32,000 bases of DNA, from positions 9,737-41,736 of the forward strand of contig NZ_QULW01000027.1 in NCBI RefSeq assembly GCF_003481825.1, read 5' to 3'. Below the pieces are notes generated by a model that worked only from the letters and a program-made list of their open reading frames with translations, made no database searches and was not told where the DNA came from. Positions within the stretch are counted from its first letter, which is position 1, and each line of letters starts with the position of its first letter. Source of the DNA: Clostridium sp. OM02-18AC. Lineage in GTDB: Bacteria; Bacillota; Clostridia; Lachnospirales; Lachnospiraceae. The position numbers were made by a program, and so were the translations under genes. Positions 10,928-31,768 of this stretch are shown piece by piece.

Positions 10928-12154
10928 TTAAAACTCTGCCCGGATTCTCTGGCAGATCTTCGCGGTCTTTTCCAGCGCTGCAGCACAGTCTGCATATGCT
11001 GCTTCACTCATCTCACCGGTCAGGAGTGCAAACTCGTCGCTTAAGCTGTCCAACTTTACGACTTCTGCATTTCCAAATGCAGCAGCGGCAGCTTTCTCGA
11101 GTTCTGCTCCAGTTCCCTCTACGCGTACAAAATAACGATGTACAGAGGTTTTCTGGTCTGCAATCGCGAGGCGCTCGCTGCTCCAGCCAAGCACTACATG
11201 ATGGTCTGCGTTCTCGACTGCTTCCATAATGTCTGCGATGACTGCACTGGCAGTCGGCAGTTTGCCTGCACCACTACCATAGAACATCGCGGTTCCAAGC
11301 ATATTTCCTTTTACCATGATTCCGTTGAATACATCATTCACAGCATACAGCGGATGGTCTTTTCCGATCATAACCGGTGCTACCCAGGCATGAACCTCTT
11401 CTCCGTCCATGCGGCTGGTTCCAAACAGCTTCACAGAGGTTCCAAGCTTGTCTGCATACTTGAAGTCCACATCGGTGATTTTGGTAATCCCTTCTGTGCT
11501 GATGTCCTCGTAGTTTACTTCTTTTCCTGTTGCCATCGCCGTGAGGATCGCGATCTTACGGCAGGTATCGTATCCTTCTACATCTGCTTCCGGGTTACGC
11601 TCTGCATAACCAAGCGCCTGAGCCTCTTTTAAGACTGTCTCAAAGGATGCACCCTCTTTGCCCATCTTGGTCAGGATATAGTTGGTAGTACCGTTTAAGA
11701 TACCGGTGATCTCTACGATCTTCTCACCCTTTAAGCAGCGGTACAGCGGACGGATGATCGGGATGCCGCCGCCGACACTTGCCTCAAAGAAGAAATTTAC
11801 ATTCTTTTCTTTTGCAATGGCAAGAAGCTCGGTTCCGTATGCTGCCACCAGTGCCTTATTGGAAGTTACGACATGTTTGCCTGCTAAAAGACTTGCCTTA
11901 ACAAACGGGTATGCCGGATTTAAGCCCCCCATGGTCTCTACTACCACACTGACTTCCGGATCCTGCTCGATCACCTGAAAATCATGCACGATCTTATCTT
12001 CTACCGGACTTCCCGGGAAATCTCTTAAATCCAGGACATATTTCAGTGCTACATCCTGTCCGCAGCCTTTTTTGATCTGATCCGCATTTTGATCTAAAAT
12101 CTCTGTCACGCCGGAACCGATTGTGCCATATCCCATGATTGCTACCTGTACCAT
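10928..12154 (-). CDS. hom: Homoserine dehydrogenase
   Basis: 408 aa. It has the N-terminal NAD-binding motif (VAIMGYGTIGSG), the catalytic core and a C-terminal ACT-like region. Confidence 0.93.
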   Translation of the reverse strand: MVQVAIMGYGTIGSGVTEILDQNADQIKKGCGQDVALKYVLDLRDFPGSPVEDKIVHDFQVIEQDPEVSVVVETMGGLNPAYPFVKASLLAGKHVVTSNKALVAAYGTELLAIAKEKNVNFFFEASVGGGIPIIRPLYRCLKGEKIVEITGILNGTTNYILTKMGKEGASFETVLKEAQALGYAERNPEADVEGYDTCRKIAILTAMATGKEVNYEDISTEGITKITDVDFKYADKLGTSVKLFGTSRMDGEEVHAWVAPVMIGKDHPLYAVNDVFNGIMVKGNMLGTAMFYGSGAGKLPTASAVIADIMEAVENADHHVVLGWSSERLAIADQKTSVHRYFVRVEGTGAELEKAAAAAFGNAEVVKLDSLSDEFALLTGEMSEAAYADCAAALEKTAKICQRIRAEF

Positions 12155-12277
12155 TGCTCCGTCCTCACTTTTCTTTTACTTATATTTTAAGACAGTTTCG
12201 CATTGCTGTCATCCTCTGCTTTCTGTCCAGCTATCGCTTTTGTGATTCCTGTTCACACGCTGCGCAAACAGCCGCTT

Positions 12278-12724
12278 TTATTCTCTCGCAAGAATCTTCA
12301 CATAGTGAATGCCGTCCTGATCCTCGATCTCTTCCACCATCTTGGAAACATTGCCGGTATTGTCTTTTACCTCCACCGACAAGGTTAATGTCGCTACACC
12401 ATTGACCGGAATACTCTGATGAATCGTCAGGATATTCGCTTTGTAAACTGCTACGATATGAAGCAGGTCCGAAAGCAGTCCCTGTTCATCGTCCATCTGC
12501 ACCACAAAGGTTACCGTCTTGCCTTTGGTGTTATCATAAAACGGAAAAATGTCTTCTTTGTATTTGTAAAAAGAACTGCGGCTGATGCCTACCCGCTCTG
12601 TTGCCTCCTGCACGGTTAACACACGCTCGGACTCCAGAAGCTTCTTGGCCTCCACCACCTTCAGCAGCACCTCCGGTACCGCCTTCTGTTTTACCACAAA
12701 ATATTTGCTTTTCTCTTCTGGCAT
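12278..12724 (-). CDS. ACT domain-containing protein (UPF0735/PheB-like) with N-terminal HTH
   Basis: I prefer the start MPEEKSKYFVV at 12724, preceded by AGGAGGAG. An HTH-like segment (TVQEATERVGISRSSFYKYK) is followed by an ACT fold. Confidence 0.8.
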   Translation of the reverse strand: MPEEKSKYFVVKQKAVPEVLLKVVEAKKLLESERVLTVQEATERVGISRSSFYKYKEDIFPFYDNTKGKTVTFVVQMDDEQGLLSDLLHIVAVYKANILTIHQSIPVNGVATLTLSVEVKDNTGNVSKMVEEIEDQDGIHYVKILARE

Positions 12725-12795
12725 AACAACTCCTCCTGCGCACTCTCCATGTTCGTCCACTATGAACATTTGTGCTCATGTGGAAGATATTAGCA

Positions 12796-12840
12796 CAAAA
12801 AAAGGCAGAGTGCAAGCATTTTCTCGCATACACTCTGCTT
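12796..12840 (-). terminator. Rho-independent terminator after prfB
   Basis: The minus strand reads GCAGAGTGtatgcgagaaaatgcttgCACTCTGCCttttttt, a 9-bp stem plus a T7 tract. Confidence 0.75.
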
Positions 12841-12882
12841 TCCCGTTTTAATTGTTCCTGTTCACGCATGCGTGCCCTGCAA

Positions 12883-12918
12883 CTGGATTTTCTGAACGGA
12901 AAATCCCTGCCTGTGAGC
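12883..12918. repeat. Dispersed intergenic hairpin repeat, copy 2
   Basis: The sequence is actGGATTTTCtgaacgGAAAATCCctgcctgtgagc. It forms a perfect 8-bp stem (12885-12892 / 12899-12906). The 16-mer at 12899-12914 is identical to 10351-10366. Confidence 0.7.
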
Positions 12919-12926
12919 CTTAACGC

Positions 12927-14064
12927 TTAGTCGTCCGCAGATGCCTTACGGTCCGGGCATCCCAGGCTCAGCCAGCGCAGGTAGGCACTGATAAACGGGT
13001 CCAGCCCGCCATCCAGGACATTTGCCACGTTTCCGGTTTCTTCCCCGGTACGCAGATCCTTGACCATGGTGTATGGCTGAAGAACATAGGAACGGATCTG
13101 GTTGCCCCAGCCGATTTCTTTGACATCACCGCGGATATCAGAAAGCTTCTCTGCATTTTCCTGCTGCTTGAGCATATACAGCTTCGCCTTTAACATCTGC
13201 ATGGCTTTGTCTTTATTCTGGAACTGGGAACGCTCATTCTGGCACTGTACCACGATTCCGGTCGGAATATGGGTGATACGGATAGCAGAAGAAGTCTTGT
13301 TGATGTGCTGTCCACCGGCACCACTGGAACGGTAGGTATCGATCCGCAGATCGTCCGGATTGATCTCAACATCCAGGTCCTCTTCAATATCCGGCATGAC
13401 ATCACAGGATACGAAAGAAGTCTGGCGCTTTCCTGCTGCATTGAACGGAGAAATGCGCACCAGACGGTGTACACCGCGTTCGGATTTCAGGTATCCAAAC
13501 GCATTCTCGCCATTGATCTGGATGGTCACAGACTTAATGCCCGCTTCATCGCCGTCCAGATAATCCAGGACCTCGGTTTTATACCCCATCTTGTCTGCCC
13601 AGCGGCAGTACATCCGGTACAGCATACTGCACCAGTCACAGGACTCCGTTCCGCCTGCACCTGCATTCAGGCGCAGAATGGCATTGTATTTGTCGTATTC
13701 CCCTGACAGCAATGTCTCCATACGGAGTTTTTCCAGATTGCGCTGGAACTCATCCAACATTTCCTGGATCTCCGGGATCAGGGAAGGGTCCTCCTCCTCG
13801 TAGCCCATCTCGATCATCACCTGGATGTCTTCATACTGCTGTTCCAGACCACGGTAGAGCTCTACGGTATCCTTTAAGTTCTTCGCCTCCTGCACCAGCT
13901 TGGTGGCGCGGTCCGCGTCGTCCCAGAACCCCGGCTCCTCCATGGATTTATCTAATTCATCGATTCGTCTGACCTTGTTATCCAGGTCAAAGTGAATCCC
14001 TCACTTCCACTAATGGTTTTTCAAAGGTCGATAATGTGTACTTGAACTGATCTAATTCTACCAT
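12927..14064 (-). CDS. prfB: Peptide chain release factor 2, requiring a programmed +1 frameshift
   Basis: Frame 0 (14064-13990) encodes MVELDQFKYTLSTFEKPLVEVRDSL and then hits TGA at 13989-13987. The +1 frame from 13988 continues DLDNKVRRIDELDKSMEEPGFWDD... into the 338-aa track ORF, which carries the SPF and GGQ motifs (ISPFN, SSGAGGQHINK). An RBS (GAAGGTGA) precedes the ATG. Confidence 0.93.
13986..14005 (-). promoter_or_regulatory. RF2 autoregulatory +1 frameshift site (SD-like element plus CTT TGA C)
   Basis: The minus strand reads GTGAGGGATTCA CTT TGA C. CTT is at 13992-13990, TGA at 13989-13987 and C at 13986. A purine-rich SD-like GAGGGA lies a few nt upstream. Confidence 0.9.
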
Positions 14065-26245: not shown

Positions 26246-26513
26246 CGCCTAATGCTTTTTAGATTTTCTTCGCAATCGTAGACAGCTCCGAAATAATACT
26301 AAGAAGATCATTTTTGGCAAGCTCCGTGCGGCAGAATTGGAGCGTGAAAATACGTAGCTACGTCGGAAAGTCCACAGCTATGAGGATGTAATTCAGCGTA
26401 ATAAAAGGAATTTGAGATTGAAAAGGGACGCTTCTCTTTCCGACTGACCGCCCCATACAGAGAGGAACGCCGCAGGGCGGCAAGCGAAGCGGCAAAAAAC
26501 GAATAAAAGGGTT

Positions 26514-27665
26514 TTAGGGCTTCGTTGATTGTTGCGTTGGCAACCCCACCACAATGGTAGTGCCCTTCTCCGAACTTTTCTCCACCCAAACGGAGCCGCC
26601 GTGGAGATCGGCGATCTCCCATACCAGTGAGAGCCCCAGTCCTGCGCCACCGTATTCCCGGCTGCGAGACTTGTCCACCCGGAAGAAGGGCTGGAAGATG
26701 CTGCGCTGATACACCTCCGGAATGCCGCAGCCGGTGTCGGAGACGCGGAGCAAGAGCTTTTCCAACTCCTGAGTGACAGAAACCCGTACCGAGCCGCCCG
26801 GCCGGTTGTACTTGACAGCATTCTCCGTCAGGTTGAAGATCAGCCGGTAGATCAGTGCATCGCTGCCGGTCATAATGCCGTCGCCCTCCGCCGTCAGCGT
26901 GACGCCGCGCTTATCTGAGAGCGGCGCAAGATCTGTGAAGATCTCCTCGATCATGGGAGCGAGCTGGATCCGCTCGTTCCGCGCCACCTGCCGCAGATTG
27001 CTCATCTCCAGCAGTGTCCTGGTCATCTGTATCAGCCGTTCCGTCTGCTCACGCAAAAGCGTAAGGAACTCCGCCGTCTCCGGTCGCACGTCAGGATGCT
27101 CCGCGGAAAACAGCTCCAACTGCGCCTGCATTAGTGCCAGTGGCGTGCGCAGCTCGTGGGCGGCGTTGCCGGTGAACTGCCGCTGGGCGGAAAAGGCGTT
27201 GTTCAGCCGCTCCAGCATCTGGTTGAACGAGCGGCTCAGCTGCCGGAACTCCGAAATAGCGTCTTCATCGATCCTCATATCGGCAAGATTGTTCAGCTGC
27301 ACCTGCTCCACCTGCGAGGTAAAGCTGCGCAGGGGCTTGAGAGCGCGTCCGCTGACGAAATAGGCGAGGATGCCGCTGAGCAGCGTTACCGCCGCCGTGA
27401 TGTACCAGTTGGTGGTGCGGAAGCGCCCCTGCACCCCATCGACGACGATGATCAACTCCTCGTTGGGCGCTATGAGCTGCGGGTCAAAGCTCGCCGCTCC
27501 GCCATCATTCAGGATCACCGTGCCGCCGCCTTGTAAACTGTCCGCAATGGTGTCCATATAGTACACACCGGAGGAGCACAGCAGCAAATTCATGGCCACG
27601 CAGGTGATACCGATGAGCAGAACGGACATCAGCGTGATGCGCCACTGCAGGGAAAACCGCTTCAT
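26514..27665 (-). CDS. Sensor histidine kinase (two TM segments, HAMP, HisKA, HATPase_c)
   Basis: 383 aa. It has the H-box FTGNAAHELRTPL, the N-box NLTENAVKYN and the G-boxes DTGCGI / GGAGLGLS. An extracytoplasmic loop of about 60 aa lies between the TM segments. Confidence 0.9.
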   Translation of the reverse strand: MKRFSLQWRITLMSVLLIGITCVAMNLLLCSSGVYYMDTIADSLQGGGTVILNDGGAASFDPQLIAPNEELIIVVDGVQGRFRTTNWYITAAVTLLSGILAYFVSGRALKPLRSFTSQVEQVQLNNLADMRIDEDAISEFRQLSRSFNQMLERLNNAFSAQRQFTGNAAHELRTPLALMQAQLELFSAEHPDVRPETAEFLTLLREQTERLIQMTRTLLEMSNLRQVARNERIQLAPMIEEIFTDLAPLSDKRGVTLTAEGDGIMTGSDALIYRLIFNLTENAVKYNRPGGSVRVSVTQELEKLLLRVSDTGCGIPEVYQRSIFQPFFRVDKSRSREYGGAGLGLSLVWEIADLHGGSVWVEKSSEKGTTIVVGLPTQQSTKP

Positions 27666-28339
27666 TCCTCCTCGCCTCCCATCAGATAGCCCTCGCCGAT
27701 GCGGTTGCGGATGGGGTCATAGCCCAGCACGGCGCGGAGCTTTTTGCGCAGGGCGGAGATGTGGACGCGAATGGAATTGCTGAAGCTGTCCACGCTATTG
27801 TCCCAAACGTGATCCATCAGCTCCTCCTGACTTACTGGCCTTCCTTGATGCACCATCAGGTATTCCAGGATTCCCGTTTCCTTCCGGGTGAGCGTCAGCG
27901 TCTGCCCGTTGACGGTGGCGGTACGGGAGCGGGTGTCAAAGGTCAGGTCTCCGCAGCTTAGCAGCACATCCTGCTGGGTGAACTGCCGCAATGTCAGGCT
28001 GCGGATGCGGGCCTCCAGCTCCGCCAAGTGGAAGGGCTTCGCCAGATAGTCGTTCGCCCCGGCATCCAGCCCCTGCACCTTGTCCTCCACTTCGCTGCGG
28101 GCGGAGAGGATCAGCACCCGCGTCTCCCGGTCGGTCTGCCGCAGGGTGCGCAGCACCGTCATGCCGTCCTTTTTCGGCAGATTCAGATCAAGAAGCACCA
28201 GATCGTATCGTTCCACGCCCAGAAGCGCCAGCGCCTTTTCGCCGTCATAGCAGTAGTCCACGCTGTAGGCCAGCCGCCGCAGGCTGCGAACGATAGTCTC
28301 GCACAGGGCGCGTTCATCTTCAATTACTAAAAGGTGCAT
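27662..28339 (-). CDS. OmpR-family response regulator
   Basis: 225 aa. The receiver domain (LVIEDE...DLVLLDLNLPKKDG) is followed by a winged-helix output domain (LTRKETGILEYL). It overlaps the kinase gene by 4 nt. Confidence 0.93.
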   Translation of the reverse strand: MHLLVIEDERALCETIVRSLRRLAYSVDYCYDGEKALALLGVERYDLVLLDLNLPKKDGMTVLRTLRQTDRETRVLILSARSEVEDKVQGLDAGANDYLAKPFHLAELEARIRSLTLRQFTQQDVLLSCGDLTFDTRSRTATVNGQTLTLTRKETGILEYLMVHQGRPVSQEELMDHVWDNSVDSFSNSIRVHISALRKKLRAVLGYDPIRNRIGEGYLMGGEEE

Positions 28340-28420
28340 GAGAGTCCTCCTTTTTATTTCTTCATTTTTGTGTTGCTTTCATTATAGCAAAAACAGATAA
28401 GGTTTGCGTTAAGTTTTCGT

Positions 28421-28455
28421 TCTTAACAGAGACTTTAACTCTCCCGCGCTATGAT
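28421..28455 (+). promoter_or_regulatory. Candidate response-regulator-dependent promoter (direct repeats overlapping the -35, plus TATGAT)
   Basis: cTTAACagaga / cTTTAACtctc repeats sit about 12 nt apart (TTAAC at 28423-28427 and 28435-28439, with a further TTAAG at 28409-28413). TATGAT lies at 28450-28455, about 32 nt before the small-ORF ATG. Confidence 0.35.
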
Positions 28456-28486
28456 GGGGGCAGAAAATCGGAAAGGGTGATGAAAA

Positions 28487-28633
28487 ATGAGCTGCAAGAA
28501 AAAGGCCGCAGCGCAGGTCGTGCTGCTGATGGCCGGAGCCGCCATGCTGTGCTTCGGTGTCTGGCGGGGCGAGGCGGCGACAGTGCTGAGCAAAGCAATC
28601 AAATTATGTCTGGAGTGTGTGGGCATTGGGTAA
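28487..28633 (+). CDS. 48-aa membrane peptide with C-terminal CxxC (below the ORF-track size cutoff)
   Basis: The ATG at 28487 follows GAAAGGGTGA and encodes MSCKKKAAAQVVLLMAGAAMLCFGVWRGEAATVLSKAIKLCLECVGIG*. That gives one TM helix plus CLEC. Its stop overlaps the possible TTG start of the next gene. From memory it resembles the short CXXC peptides labelled CD1871A-family in databases. Confidence 0.65.
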   Translation: MSCKKKAAAQVVLLMAGAAMLCFGVWRGEAATVLSKAIKLCLECVGIG

Positions 28634-29534
28634 AAAGTTTTCAGGCGTTTCACAGACCATGTCCCGCTTCCGGGGCTGGATTCAGGCGGGGGCGACGCTG
28701 CTGACCAACCTGCATCTGCCGAACTTTCTCAAGGGCGGACTGTATCAGGGGGCGGGGAAGACCGTCTGCGTGCCGGGACTGAACTGCTACTCCTGTCCGG
28801 CGGCGTCCGGGGCCTGCCCCATTGGGGCGTTTCAGGCAGTGGTGGGGTCTTCCAAGTTCAGCTTCTCCTACTATATCACAGGCTTTCTCATTTTGCTGGG
28901 AGTCCTGCTGGGACGCTTTATCTGCGGCTTTCTATGCCCCTTCGGCTGGTTTCAGGAGCTGCTGCACAAAATCCCCACGAAGAAGCTTTCCACAAAAAGG
29001 CTGAAGCCGCTGACATACCTGAAATACGCTGTCCTGCTGGTGATGGTTTTCCTGCTACCAGTGTTCCTTGTGAACGATGTTGGCATGGGAGACCCGTTCT
29101 TCTGCAAATACCTCTGCCCCCAAGGCGTACTGGAGGGAGCCATCCCGCTGTCCCTTGCCAATTCCGGCATCCGGGCGGCGCTGGGCAAGCTGTTTACATG
29201 GAAATTCAGCATCCTGCTGTCGGTGATCGCGCTGAGCGTGCTGTTCTACCGACCGTTCTGCAAGTGGCTTTGCCCGCTTGGCGCGTTCTATGCGCTGTTC
29301 AACCGGGTGTCCCTCTTCCAGATGAAGGTGGACAAGAGTAAGTGCGTCTCCTGTGGGAAATGTGCCAGAGCCTGCAAGATGGATGTGGATGTGACGAAAA
29401 CGCCCAACCATACCGAGTGCATCCGCTGCGGAATGTGCATCCGCGCCTGTCCAACGAACGCCGTGTGCTTCCGCTACGGCTTCGGCAACGGGAAAGAAAC
29501 AACAAAGAAAACAACGATGGAGGAATCAAAATGA
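28626..29534 (+). CDS. Membrane-bound 4Fe-4S binding protein (NapH/MauN-like polyferredoxin)
   Basis: It has repeated CP motifs in or near TM helices (CYSCPAASGACP, FLCPFGW, YLCPQG, WLCPLG). Two ferredoxin motifs are also present (CVSCGKCARAC and CIRCGMCIRACP). The start is uncertain: TTG 28626 (coupled to the upstream peptide), GTG 28617 or ATG 28659. Confidence 0.85.
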   Translation: MGKKFSGVSQTMSRFRGWIQAGATLLTNLHLPNFLKGGLYQGAGKTVCVPGLNCYSCPAASGACPIGAFQAVVGSSKFSFSYYITGFLILLGVLLGRFICGFLCPFGWFQELLHKIPTKKLSTKRLKPLTYLKYAVLLVMVFLLPVFLVNDVGMGDPFFCKYLCPQGVLEGAIPLSLANSGIRAALGKLFTWKFSILLSVIALSVLFYRPFCKWLCPLGAFYALFNRVSLFQMKVDKSKCVSCGKCARACKMDVDVTKTPNHTECIRCGMCIRACPTNAVCFRYGFGNGKETTKKTTMEESK

Positions 29535-30490
29535 ACAGGAAGAGAATTTTTGCACTGGCTTTTGCCGTGCTGATGGTGCTGGCCTTGGCGGCCTGCGGTA
29601 CGAAGAACAATGACAAGATGGGCGACATGAGCGGCAACGGCTCCGCCATGACTGGCGAGCCGAAAAACGCCGAGGAGGCGCTCGCCCTGCACAAGGAGCT
29701 GCTAGAGCAGGAGAACGCGATCCTGTCGGAAAATACCGAGCTGTGGGAAAATGTCTTTATGGAGGCTGAGAAGGGCATGGCCATGATCGAGGACGGGAAA
29801 AACTACGGCGACTTCCTGCTGGATACCGTCGAGGCCGCTAAAGAGCAGTTCACCAACAAGGAGTATGAGTGGCTGAAGGAGTCAGCCACGGAGATCAGCA
29901 ATATTGAAAACAGGCTGACCGAGTTGGAAGAGAAGTATCCCGAGATCATGCAGAAATCCATGGACGGCGATATGAACATGCCCGCAGGCAGCGACACGAG
30001 CAACTCTCCCGACGACGGCAGTATGCAGAAGTTCCCCGCCTTTGAAGGGAAAGATCTGGACGGCAACACGGTGAAGAGCGACGAGCTGTTCTCCGCCAAC
30101 GCCGTCACCGTAGTGAATTTCTGGTTCACCACCTGCAATCCCTGCGTGGGTGAGCTTGGCGAGCTGGACGCGCTGAACAAGGAACTGGCGAACAAGGGCG
30201 GCGCGCTCATCGGCATCAACTCCTTTACGCTCGACGGCGACGAGAAGGCCATCGCCGAGGCGAAGGAGGTGCTTGCCAAGAAGGGCGCGACCTATCAAAA
30301 CATCTATTTCGGCTCCGGCGGCGATGCCGGTAAGTTTGTGGAGAATGTCTTCGCCTATCCCACCACCTATGTGGTCGACCGCAGCGGCAATATCGTGGGT
30401 GAGCCCATCGTAGGCGCTGTTACCGGCAAGACGCAGGCTGAGGCGCTGCAAGCCCAGATCGACAAGGCGCTCGCCGCCGATATGGGCTGA
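29531..30490 (+). CDS. TlpA-like thioredoxin-fold lipoprotein with Met-rich N-terminal domain
   Basis: The ATG at 29531 overlaps the upstream stop as ATGA and has RBS GGAGGAA. The lipobox is LAAC. The C-terminal thioredoxin fold carries WFTTCNPC. The track ORF starting at 29342 is an over-extension. Confidence 0.88.
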   Translation: MNRKRIFALAFAVLMVLALAACGTKNNDKMGDMSGNGSAMTGEPKNAEEALALHKELLEQENAILSENTELWENVFMEAEKGMAMIEDGKNYGDFLLDTVEAAKEQFTNKEYEWLKESATEISNIENRLTELEEKYPEIMQKSMDGDMNMPAGSDTSNSPDDGSMQKFPAFEGKDLDGNTVKSDELFSANAVTVVNFWFTTCNPCVGELGELDALNKELANKGGALIGINSFTLDGDEKAIAEAKEVLAKKGATYQNIYFGSGGDAGKFVENVFAYPTTYVVDRSGNIVGEPIVGAVTGKTQAEALQAQIDKALAADMG

Positions 30491-30586
30491 CCTGAGATTT
30501 AAAAAGTGCCTGCTGCGCGCCATTGCATTGCCCTCGGCGGGCAAGGGGCGGAGTGAGCTCTGATTCCCCTGAAAGGAGGAAACGCG

Positions 30587-31702
30587 ATGTATCGAAGTGT
30601 ATTGGCCCTGCTTTTCGCCGCAGTGCTGCTGGGCGGCTGCGCCGCCGGGAAGCAGACTGTGCCGAAGGAAAAGAGCGGACAGGAAACAAACATGGACGGA
30701 GCGGCTTTTGACCGGTCCGACGAGGAGGTCACCTATATGGATACCACAGACAATGTCATCTATCTGGCGGGCGGCTGCTTCTGGGGCATGGAACAGCTGA
30801 TGCAGTCCATCCCCGGCGTCATCGATGCCGAGAGCGGCTATGCCAACGGCACCTGCGAGGCGGACGCCGATTACAAGACCGTCTGCCAAGGGAACACCGG
30901 CTTCCGGGAGGCCGTGCGGGTGGAGTATGACCCCGGGCAGGTGAGTCTCGACGCCCTGCTGCTGGCCTACTTCTATGTGATCGATCCCACGGTGGAGAAC
31001 CGACAGGGCAACGACCGGGGCAGCCAGTATCAGACCGGTGTCTATTACACCAACGAAAGCGCGAAGGAAACGGTGGAGCGCATCGCGGAGATCGAGCGGG
31101 GACGCAGTGAAAAGTTCTTCGTGGAGATAGGTCCACTCAAGAACTATTATCCTGCCGAGGAGTACCACCAGAACTACCTCGAAAAGAACCCGAACGGCTA
31201 CTGCCACATCCCGCGCGCGGAGATGGAGCTGTTTTCCCGGCTGCGCATCGATCCGGGCGACTATCAGAAGCCCGCGGCGGAATCCATCCGGGACAAGCTG
31301 ACGGCGGAGCAGTACCGTGTTACGCAGGAGAGCGGCACGGAGCGCGCTTTCACAGGCGAGTTCTGGGATAAGTTTGAAAAGGGCATCTATGTGGATGTCG
31401 TCACCGGCGAGCCGCTCTTTTCCTCCACGGATAAGTACGAGAGCGGCTGCGGCTGGCCGGCTTTCACAAAGCCCATTGAAGAGCCTGCCGTGGTGGAACT
31501 GGAGGACCTGAGCCACGGCATGCGCCGTACAGAGGTCAGAAGCCGTGCCGGAGATTCTCACCTTGGTCATGTGTTCACCGGCGATCCGGAGTCCCCCAAT
31601 GGCGTGCGCTACTGCATCAACAGTGCGGCCCTGCGCTTTGTGCCTTACGCAAAGATGAAAGCAGAGGGTTACGGATATCTTCTGTATCTGTTCGAGGAAT
31701 GA
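30587..31702 (+). CDS. msrAB: Bifunctional methionine sulfoxide reductase MsrA-MsrB, lipoprotein
   Basis: 371 aa. The lipobox is LLGGC. The MsrA active site is GGCFWGME; the MsrB motifs are GCGWPAF and RYCINS. The RBS is AAAGGAGGAA. Confidence 0.93.
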
Positions 31703-31728: not shown

Positions 31729-31768
31729 GCAGCGGTCCAATCATTATGAACCGGGCCGCTGTCGTTTA
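31729..31768. terminator. Stem-loop / weak terminator between msrAB and the convergent small ORF
   Basis: The sequence is GCAGCGGTCCaatcattatgaaccGGGCCGCTGtcgttta, a 9-bp stem with one G-U pair and a weak T tail. Confidence 0.5.

Follow-up and report, generated by a model that had tools for sequence, protein, structure and literature searches.

We analysed a 32-kb stretch of DNA from Clostridium sp. OM02-18AC (the window), in which positions 26514 to 31702 hold a six-gene cassette encoding a two-component system (TCS), a 48-aa micro-protein with a CXXC tail, a NapH-like membrane polyferredoxin, a thioredoxin-like lipoprotein and a methionine-sulfoxide reductase (Msr) lipoprotein. An open reading frame (ORF) list and domain scans place all six genes at the coordinates given below, and domain and NCBIfam searches agree with the genes, families and coordinates assigned in a preliminary description of the locus. 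The genes for the sensor histidine kinase (HK; 26514–27665) and the OmpR/PhoB-type response regulator (RR; 27662–28339) lie on the minus strand and overlap by 4 nt. They are divergent, across an intergenic region of 147 nt, from the plus-strand genes for the micro-protein (28487–28633), the polyferredoxin (28617–29534), the thioredoxin-like protein (tlpA; 29531–30490) and the MsrA-MsrB fusion (msrAB; 30587–31702). The plus-strand set is tightly packed, as had been described: the polyferredoxin ATG (28659) lies 25 nt after the stop of the micro-protein gene, while an alternative upstream start (GTG 28617 or TTG 28626) overlaps that stop; the polyferredoxin stop and the tlpA start overlap in ATGA; and the 96-nt gap between tlpA and msrAB carries a strong ribosome-binding site, with no plus-strand terminator-like site called in it by a terminator scan.

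The polyferredoxin, 291 to 305 aa long depending on the start codon, contains two Fer4_5 domains and one Fer4 domain, and all 18 of its cysteines are invariant in an alignment of homologues of 39–84% identity. Eight of the 18 form two 4Fe-4S ferredoxin motifs, and ten lie in the membrane part. Specifically, three CX3CP motifs are formed by C89/C93, which follows the second transmembrane helix (TM2), by C149/C153, in the loop between TM3 and TM4 (loop 3), and by C201/C205, which follows TM4, while C37, C43, C46 and C53 make up a C-x5-C-x2-CP-x5-CP loop between TM1 and TM2 (loop 1). The preliminary description had counted four Cx3CP-type motifs and two ferredoxin motifs; the ferredoxin motifs and three of the four stand, but the fourth is this loop-1 arrangement.

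E. coli NapH (annotated K-12 record) aligns with the polyferredoxin at 19% identity and shares the CX3CP motifs after TM2 and TM4, together with the eight ferredoxin cysteines; at the loop-1 and loop-3 motifs its sequence is gapped. The topology of NapH was reportedly determined experimentally by Brondijk et al. in 2004, with four TM helices, both ends inside and the CX3CP motifs cytoplasmic. The polyferredoxin is likewise predicted to have four TM helices and both ends inside, with the ferredoxin domain and C89/C93/C201/C205 at the inner face. Because of the homology to NapH, the six cysteines specific to the subfamily (C37/C43/C46/C53/C149/C153) are predicted to face outward, on the same side as the CxEC tail of the micro-protein and the lipoprotein. 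Charge counts agree with this topology for the N-terminus, loop 2, loop 3 and the C-terminus. An AlphaFold2 model of the polyferredoxin has a mean predicted local distance difference test (pLDDT) score of 80.6 and a predicted template-modelling (pTM) score of 0.78; no solved structure was found that covers the membrane part, the PDB matches being limited to the generic ferredoxin domain.

The NapH subfamily model TIGR02163, with 67.4 bits, and NF007013, with 52.3 bits, remain below their cutoffs of 213 and 234, and both match over the C-terminal third only. A true NapH was rejected on these scores and on the missing napG and napA/B/C partners, there being no nap gene in the window or among the conserved neighbours of related loci. 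We also rejected a flavinylated NapH-like system, since the polyferredoxin has no FMN_bind domain and the window has no FMN_bind or ApbE gene. In a collection of 1.84 billion representative proteins (clusters at 50% identity), a HMMER search with the polyferredoxin found 8034 homologues, including 621 at E ≤ 1e-30, and single 90% clusters of the family hold about 20,000 metagenomic members. In one 457-aa representative (P0243), the N-terminal Fer4_5 portion of a polyferredoxin of 97% identity is linked to a phage-integrase domain; this is probably an artefact of assembly or gene calling, or else a gene that a mobile element has disrupted.

To follow the cassette across lineages, we scanned one genome per GTDB species with a polyferredoxin profile, which gave 80 loci of 71–99% identity; one more locus (L001), added by exact protein look-up, brought the genome-derived loci to 81. 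A metagenome scan seeded with distant fused homologues gave 80 more loci, down to 32% identity to the fusion query. The trio of micro-protein, polyferredoxin and thioredoxin genes is adjacent in about 160 of these loci (81 genome-derived and 80 metagenome), and the order HK-RR, then divergently micro-protein, polyferredoxin and tlpA, is kept in essentially every genome-derived locus that is uncut by a contig end. Because it recurs in about 160 independent loci, the arrangement goes beyond chance. In the metagenome and distant loci the TCS is often absent and the trio persists, its distant unfused form consisting of a 43–55-aa micro-protein, a 270–300-aa polyferredoxin and a TlpA-like protein of about 170–200 aa. 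The preliminary description had raised the prospect that the polyferredoxin and micro-protein genes vary together with tlpA and msrAB; the co-occurrence with tlpA holds throughout the roughly 160 loci, but msrAB is not conserved.

The hosts include Oscillospiraceae, Lachnospiraceae (Blautia, Coprococcus, Roseburia) and other Clostridia, as well as Coriobacteriia, with many Collinsella, Tractidigestivibacter and an Atopobium. The same cassette occurs in Clostridia and Coriobacteriia at 73–85% protein identity with different flanking genes each time, and in both scans the flanking genes differ in almost every lineage. In the window, a GC-rich island spans the whole cassette including msrAB (26400–31600; GC content 0.55–0.62, compared with 0.33–0.52 in the flanks and 0.49 in the window overall), around which no flanking repeats or integrase were found. 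The GC-rich island, the sharing between Clostridia and Coriobacteriia and the varying flanks point to horizontal transfer of the cassette.

One metagenome contig (L151, 1138–9625) carries two tandem copies of the full HK-RR-micro-protein-polyferredoxin-tlpA cassette, with identical scores for micro-protein, polyferredoxin and tlpA and nearly identical scores for RR and HK. Another contig (L006), labelled Phocaeicola dorei, carries a cassette whose polyferredoxin is 81% identical to that of the window, and is either a mis-binned contig or a transfer into Bacteroidota; locus L009 is from Eggerthellaceae.

The micro-protein has a basic N-terminus, one TM helix (residues 7–25) and an amphipathic tail ending in KAIKLCLECVGIG-COOH, in which CLEC occupies residues 41–44, four residues before the C-terminus. 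It matches NCBIfam NF040920, 'CD1871A family CXXC motif-containing protein', with 67.3 bits against a cutoff of 32, through residues 11–48 and over the full length of the model. The protein collection holds 626 homologues, and in nearly all loci one is encoded directly 5′ of the polyferredoxin gene. The C-terminus reads C-[LTM]-E-C-[IV]-G-[IL]-G in every one of the 158 homologues from the loci, with exactly four residues past the last cysteine in all but one (157/158). In loci with a fused polyferredoxin, the same tail (...KAINICTECIGLG) ends a 250–280-aa protein with about five TM helices, encoded just upstream, as at L084 5199–5969 and similarly in L083, L088, L091, L095, L098, L099 and L104; no recognisable soluble domain was seen in these 5-TM proteins, of which no Pfam scan was made. 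Since both the short and the long forms combine a basic N-terminus with an odd number of helices, the positive-inside rule predicts the N-terminus inside and the CXXC tail outside the membrane. A precursor of a ribosomally synthesised and post-translationally modified peptide (RiPP) or bacteriocin, with a disulfide helper and a quorum-sensing TCS, was considered and rejected: the basic N-terminus and TM helix are retained, there is no leader-cleavage motif, and the tail is almost invariant across phyla and ends a 5-TM protein in distant lineages.

The TlpA/ResA-like lipoprotein is composed of a basic, hydrophobic signal sequence followed by the lipobox LAAC, a helical N-terminal domain of about 130 aa and a thioredoxin (Trx) domain with the active site WFTTCNPC. 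Pfam Redoxin and AhpC-TSA domains match residues 166–297, and the PDB relatives include ResA, CycY and TlpA; all equivalog and subfamily models score below cutoff, so that the assignment is at family level. The AhpC-TSA match does not make the protein a peroxiredoxin, a reading that we rejected on the WxxxCxxC active site and the nearest structures (ResA, TlpA and CycY). The lipobox, the helical domain and an NFWF..C.PCV motif are conserved in 20 lineages. Two features of the protein vary between lineages. In the window it is enriched in methionine, with 11 in the first 150 mature residues (for example KMGDMSGNGSAMTG and MQKSMDGDMNMPAG) compared with 1–7 in the other 19 lineages, and the window's lineage is also the sole one with msrAB downstream in some members; the methionine-rich stretches could be a sacrificial oxidant sink, an Msr substrate or a coincidence. 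An extra conserved cysteine, in an FPGCG motif of the linker between the helical and Trx domains, occurs in L005, L008, L009, L017, L018, L028 and L031 and is absent from the window protein.

The thioredoxin domain is also found covalently joined to the polyferredoxin. Many polyferredoxin matches of 45–53% identity are 430–820 aa long, and among the 50 representatives of at least 400 aa in the best 150 matches (50%-identity clusters), 37 have the ferredoxin domain followed by a Redoxin/AhpC-TSA domain, with no Msr domain in any of the 50. Every fusion inspected has, past its ferredoxin domain, a basic stretch, one TM helix, a linker and a CxxC thioredoxin domain, in that order. Such an arrangement would leave the ferredoxin domain cytoplasmic and the Redoxin domain extracytoplasmic, in agreement with the lipoboxes of the unfused proteins, and by these sequence features we place the thioredoxin domain outside the membrane. 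The lipoboxes that had been described on both the thioredoxin-like protein and MsrAB (LAAC and LGGC) are recovered here as sequence predictions. Furthermore, the proposed tie of the iron-sulfur (FeS) protein and CXXC micro-protein to the thioredoxin lipoprotein finds support in near-universal synteny and widespread natural fusions. Their adjacency in about 160 loci, the polyferredoxin-thioredoxin fusions, the invariant cysteines and the rigid micro-protein tail together indicate that micro-protein, polyferredoxin and thioredoxin lipoprotein form one functional unit.

MsrAB stands apart from this unit. The protein carries the lipobox LGGC, PMSR (E = 7e-56) and SelR (E = 2e-47) domains and the catalytic motifs GCFWG (C64), RYCINS (MsrB catalytic C343) and SGCGWP (resolving C288), and its best PDB matches are solved MsrAB fusions (E = 2e-100). 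The GC content of msrAB (0.60–0.62) is in line with the rest of the cassette. A complete msrAB lies 3′ of tlpA in five loci (L003, L119, L144, L159 and L160), in which the polyferredoxin is 93–99% identical to that of the window, and fragments of it lie in three more (L130, L152 and L154); it is not found 3′ of the cassette in the close relatives L004 (96%), L049 (94%) and L151, nor in any other lineage. At msrAB's position, L001, whose polyferredoxin is 85% identical to that of the window, has a gene convergent to tlpA (11976–12899, minus strand) for a 307-aa thioredoxin-reductase-like flavoprotein (Pyr_redox_2); this TrxB-like neighbour recurs in no other locus. MsrAB is best read as lying outside the conserved unit, as a lineage-specific client of the cassette, and the cassette as a general system for reducing a surface thioredoxin, of which methionine-sulfoxide repair is one recruited use. 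The locus had been described as a dedicated methionine-sulfoxide repair module, a reading that does not hold with msrAB in part of the window's lineage and in no other loci. MsrAB needs a thioredoxin-type reductant, so its recruitment argues for outward electron flow.

The TCS accompanies the cassette in nearly all loci of the window type, the HK and the RR alike. The HK has two TM helices and an outer loop of about 55 aa, followed by HAMP, HisKA and HATPase_c domains, and the RR has Response_reg and Trans_reg_C domains (Pfam). The best NCBIfam matches of the HK are all below cutoff, among them the heavy-metal sensor kinase model (198 bits, cutoff 292); on the RR, the heavy-metal model scores 165 bits (cutoff 279), and for both proteins other families score about equally. 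In a comparison across loci, HK residues 1–35 contain an N-terminal SLQWR motif that hardly varies and, within TM1, a cysteine that is conserved, while the outer loop is short, acidic and variable, with no conserved His, Met or Cys. Because SLQWR and the TM1 cysteine are conserved and the outer loop is not, these features suggest intramembrane or partner-mediated sensing, not ligand binding in the loop.

The divergent promoter region (28381–28455) contains an operator-like element, GTTAAG-N8-CTTAAC-N6-TTTAAC (28408–28439), between the RR and micro-protein genes, flanked by a −10 box for the plus-strand operon (TATGAT, 28450–28455) and a minus-strand −10 box that would serve the RR-HK operon (TGCTATAAT, 28381–28389). 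An alignment of the RR-micro-protein intergenic regions of 18 loci from Clostridia and Coriobacteriia contains three conserved blocks, namely TGnTATAAT on the minus strand, the CTTAAC...A.TTTA operator and the plus-strand −10 box. A consensus promoter scan found no sigma-70 −35/−10 pair in the region, and the lack of a canonical −35 box fits an activator-dependent promoter. The adjacent RR probably activates the plus-strand operon through the conserved operator-like element. The TCS had been called dedicated, in accordance with its conservation with the cassette and with the conserved operator-like element in the divergent promoter.

We searched 18,208 ORFs of the window and the roughly 160 loci by phmmer with full-length E. 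coli DsbD, its beta domain and an approximate CcdA seed, and found no CcdA/DsbD-like transporter ORF, in a search that had no Firmicute positive control; the only matches were weak ones between the DsbD thioredoxin domain and TlpA-like proteins. When polytopic ORFs with two PC-type motifs were sought in the window and loci by a motif and TM heuristic, only the fusions themselves were returned, and Pfam scans of the window genes found no DsbD family member. A tblastn search with the DsbD beta domain for Firmicute CcdA seeds on plasmids returned only proteobacterial DsbD. Searches of the literature on CD1871A, on Fer4_5/NapH-like proteins with thioredoxin and on CcdA- or DsbD-independent routes turned up no paper in which this pairing is described; 'CD1871' in one C. 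difficile paper is an unrelated ABC permease, not the CD1871A peptide. The CD1871A family is already named by NCBI, and the literature found holds no function for it or for the polyferredoxin subfamily. Two claims of the preliminary description agree with these results: that CcdA/DsbD is lacking here, which holds for the 32-kb window and about 160 loci within searches lacking a Firmicute positive control, and that an FeS-to-thioredoxin route is undescribed, as far as the literature searches reach.

The gene content of the cassette is reminiscent of surface Msr systems that depend on CcdA or DsbD. In the pneumococcal CcdA-Etrx-MsrAB2 system, ccdA lies beside thioredoxin and msrAB genes (PMC3914529), and the ccdA-trx-msrAB-modRS locus of Fusobacterium nucleatum is induced by H2O2 and activated by ModR. 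Like the cassette, the systems of F. nucleatum, S. pneumoniae and S. gordonii (CcdA-Etrx/SdbB-MsrAB) bring a thioredoxin-fold lipoprotein and exported MsrAB together (PMC3914529; PMC7034828), and the F. nucleatum locus, too, has an OmpR-type TCS, which activates it under oxidative stress. For exported MsrAB enzymes, the membrane partners tabulated in a 2026 review are DsbD and CcdA and no others. These systems and the cassette alike need reductant to cross the membrane; however, the former have ccdA or dsbD in the operon, whereas the cassette has the NapH-like polyferredoxin and the CXXC micro-protein instead, and in the cassette MsrAB is optional, not core. The FeS protein and micro-protein had been proposed to occupy CcdA's position, and the parallel with the F. 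nucleatum locus is in line with that placing.

In addition, the polyferredoxin has a membrane core in common with the NapH/NosR/PceC family, made up of four TM helices with a pair of CX3CP motifs on the cytoplasmic side and a 2×[4Fe-4S] domain at the C-terminus. For proteins of this family, a role has been proposed in connecting electron pools of the cytoplasm or membrane with redox enzymes outside the cytosol, and NapH-like proteins have been proposed as modular transmembrane electron conduits that work with ApbE-flavinylated FMN domains and respiratory enzymes (Meheust et al. 2021, PMC8238504). Unlike NapH and the flavinylated NapH-like systems, the cassette is without NapG, an FMN-binding domain and ApbE, and has six extra invariant cysteines in predicted outer loops; its partner is a thiol-disulfide protein, whereas NapH-type partners are a cytochrome, a flavoprotein or a terminal reductase. 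Electron-based, CcdA/DsbD-independent repair of methionine sulfoxide in the envelope has a precedent in MsrPQ, formed by the haem-b protein MsrQ and the molybdoenzyme MsrP (cited in PMC8238504). The MsrPQ cofactors are haem b and molybdopterin, in contrast to the FeS centres and cysteines, thioredoxin and thiol-based MsrAB of the cassette; the proteins are unrelated, and domain scans found no MsrP or MsrQ homologue in the window. We class the cassette as a membrane electron module of the NapH type whose acceptor is of a new class, and which functionally stands where CcdA would.

A conceptual likeness is offered by ferredoxin:thioredoxin reductase (FTR) and heterodisulfide reductase, in which one-electron FeS carriers are coupled to two-electron disulfide reduction and the reducing equivalents are passed to a thioredoxin-fold protein. 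The FeS-disulfide chemistry proposed for the cassette resembles theirs, with no similarity to FTR or to the CCG domains of HdrB/HdrD found in sequence or fold, where the PDB matches are to the generic ferredoxin domain. Unlike FTR, the cassette would span the membrane and act on an extracytoplasmic thioredoxin.

Reduced extracytoplasmic thioredoxins power envelope repair (MsrAB), cytochrome maturation and disulfide isomerisation, and every characterised route known to us that keeps them reduced uses DsbD/CcdA-type thiol transporters fed by cytoplasmic thioredoxin. We consider it somewhat more likely than not that the cassette, as a self-contained, mobile and TCS-controlled unit, brings reducing equivalents to the outside of the membrane with no CcdA/DsbD transporter involved. 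Comparative genomics lends good support to such a CcdA-independent FeS/CXXC route. Specifically, a cytoplasmic donor of low potential, with ferredoxin or flavodoxin the likeliest, would reduce the two [4Fe-4S] clusters of the polyferredoxin, from which electrons would reach the cysteine sites at the inner face (C89/C93/C201/C205). Reducing equivalents would then move on to the outer-face cysteines (C37/C43/C46/C53/C149/C153), either via additional clusters or via a thiol-disulfide relay. There, the outer face and the C-x-E-C tail of the micro-protein would together reduce a disulfide by chemistry like that of FTR, and the resulting dithiol would reduce the CNPC site of the lipoprotein. The lipoprotein would in turn reduce surface clients, which in the window's lineage would include MsrAB, repairing the oxidised methionines of surface proteins.

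As for the donor, menaquinol stands at about −74 mV and a TlpA/ResA-type disulfide at about −200 mV or lower. Because menaquinol cannot reduce such a disulfide without energy input, a quinol donor is thermodynamically unlikely, and ferredoxin or flavodoxin is favoured; the quinol option of the preliminary description is to that extent disfavoured by the potentials. With somewhat less assurance, and short of an even chance in our estimation, the cassette may represent the third class of machinery by which reducing power crosses the bacterial membrane to thiol-redox proteins, after the DsbD/CcdA/ScsB thiol relays and the haem-based MsrQ. It would be an FeS 'ferredoxin:surface-thioredoxin reductase', built from a polyferredoxin and an obligatory CXXC micro-protein, widespread in ferredoxin-based gut anaerobes and spread horizontally as a sensor-controlled cassette.

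Several points weigh against this mechanism. The cassette is known here from genes and predictions, and it encodes no donor of its own, there being no conserved cytoplasmic donor gene near it across the loci. Loop 1, which holds four of the six subfamily-specific cysteines, has a net charge of +2.4 over 42 residues and is topologically ambiguous, so that the 4-TM topology draws in part on the homology to NapH and on the fusions. The AlphaFold2 model has low confidence at residues 26–50, in the region of the loop-1 cysteines, as would be expected if the loop were a binding site for a cofactor or partner. The outward direction of flow is read from just two features, the TlpA/ResA-type active site and the MsrAB neighbour, the latter in a minority of loci. 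The inner and outer sites may lie too far apart for electrons to tunnel between them unless another cofactor bridges the distance, and a thiol-disulfide relay would fit the data equally well. Finally, the searches negative for CcdA/DsbD covered the window and the loci, with no Firmicute positive control, and a ccdA gene may lie elsewhere in the genome.

Four other explanations were weighed, of which a thiol relay carries the most weight, though we regard it as fairly unlikely. Flow would again be outward, but the paired membrane cysteines would form a DsbD-like cascade, with the FeS domain as the entry point, as in FTR, or as a redox sensor. The cysteines are indeed paired on both membrane faces (three CX3C, one CX2C and the micro-protein CXXC), the loop-1 region is modelled at low confidence, and we know of no obvious route by which FeS clusters could be assembled on the outer face of a Sec-inserted protein. 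The CX3CP motifs, on the other hand, fall in Pfam Fer4_5, which is annotated as 4Fe-4S binding, an annotation and not a test, and the data do not discriminate between the two. Reverse flow, which we find improbable, would make the polyferredoxin and micro-protein a DsbB/VKOR-like pair that takes electrons from the lipoprotein inward to the FeS centres and a cytoplasmic acceptor, for inducible surface disulfide formation or isomerisation. The linkage evidence is silent on direction, most loci are without a reductase client such as MsrAB, and some Gram-positive thioredoxin-fold lipoproteins, such as BdbD and SdbA, are oxidases. Yet the Trx domain is most similar to the reductive TlpA, ResA, CycY and DsbE, the client, where one has been recruited, is MsrAB, which needs reductant, and the hosts are strict anaerobes, in which low-potential ferredoxin pools and a scarcity of oxidants would leave little to drive an inward flow.

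We hold the remaining two explanations to be very improbable, the second being the least likely of all. A CcdA encoded elsewhere might reduce the lipoprotein and MsrAB, leaving the polyferredoxin and micro-protein to serve otherwise, for example to report redox state to the HK; the reach of our CcdA/DsbD search, which was the window and loci, leaves room for this, and the conserved TM1 cysteine and variable outer loop of the HK suggest intramembrane sensing, possibly with a partner protein. However, the trio occurs without any TCS in distant loci, and covalent polyferredoxin-thioredoxin fusions in many TCS-less lineages argue for direct redox coupling over signalling. Alternatively, the cassette might be an envelope metal-stress module, with a CcoG-like metal reductase, a TlpA/Sco-type thiol protein and a CopS/CusS-like sensor, and with MsrAB incidental. 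CcoG, a Fer4_5 relative, is a cupric reductase, the window lipoprotein has Met-rich stretches, and the heavy-metal models score well on the HK, of which theirs is the best NCBIfam match, and on the RR; these TCS scores are nevertheless below cutoff, with other families about equal, the neighbourhood has no conserved metal exporter, chaperone or Sco-type motif, the methionine enrichment is confined to the window's lineage, and no His, Met or Cys is conserved in the HK outer loop.

If the FeS mechanism is true, the cassette would be a new class of transmembrane disulfide reductase and would show how strict anaerobes with a ferredoxin-centred metabolism shield their surface proteins from host oxidants. 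It would also give a function to a large unannotated family (the 621 clusters at 50% identity with E ≤ 1e-30), assign the enigmatic CX3CP motifs a role in the NapH/NosR superfamily and provide a further example of a micro-protein that is essential as a redox subunit. Found in abundance among the Clostridia and Collinsella of the human gut and apparently mobile, the cassette may affect the tolerance of inflammation by commensals.

A candidate bidirectional terminator hairpin lies 3′ of msrAB (31730–31761, given on the plus strand), where the sequence reads AGCGGTCC...GGGCCGCT, then GTCGTTTAT. It possibly closes the operon; the terminator scan called it on the minus strand only (31753–31733), which is weak evidence. 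The genes in the remaining ~26 kb of the window, outside the cassette, are of the ordinary housekeeping kind (TsaBDE, Tex, SecA, RF-2 and others). Among these, a release-factor ORF (12927–13943, minus strand; 338 aa) has PCRF and RF-1 domains, and its match begins at position 12 of the PCRF profile; such a start would fit an RF-2 whose first codons lie in another frame, with a programmed +1 frameshift.

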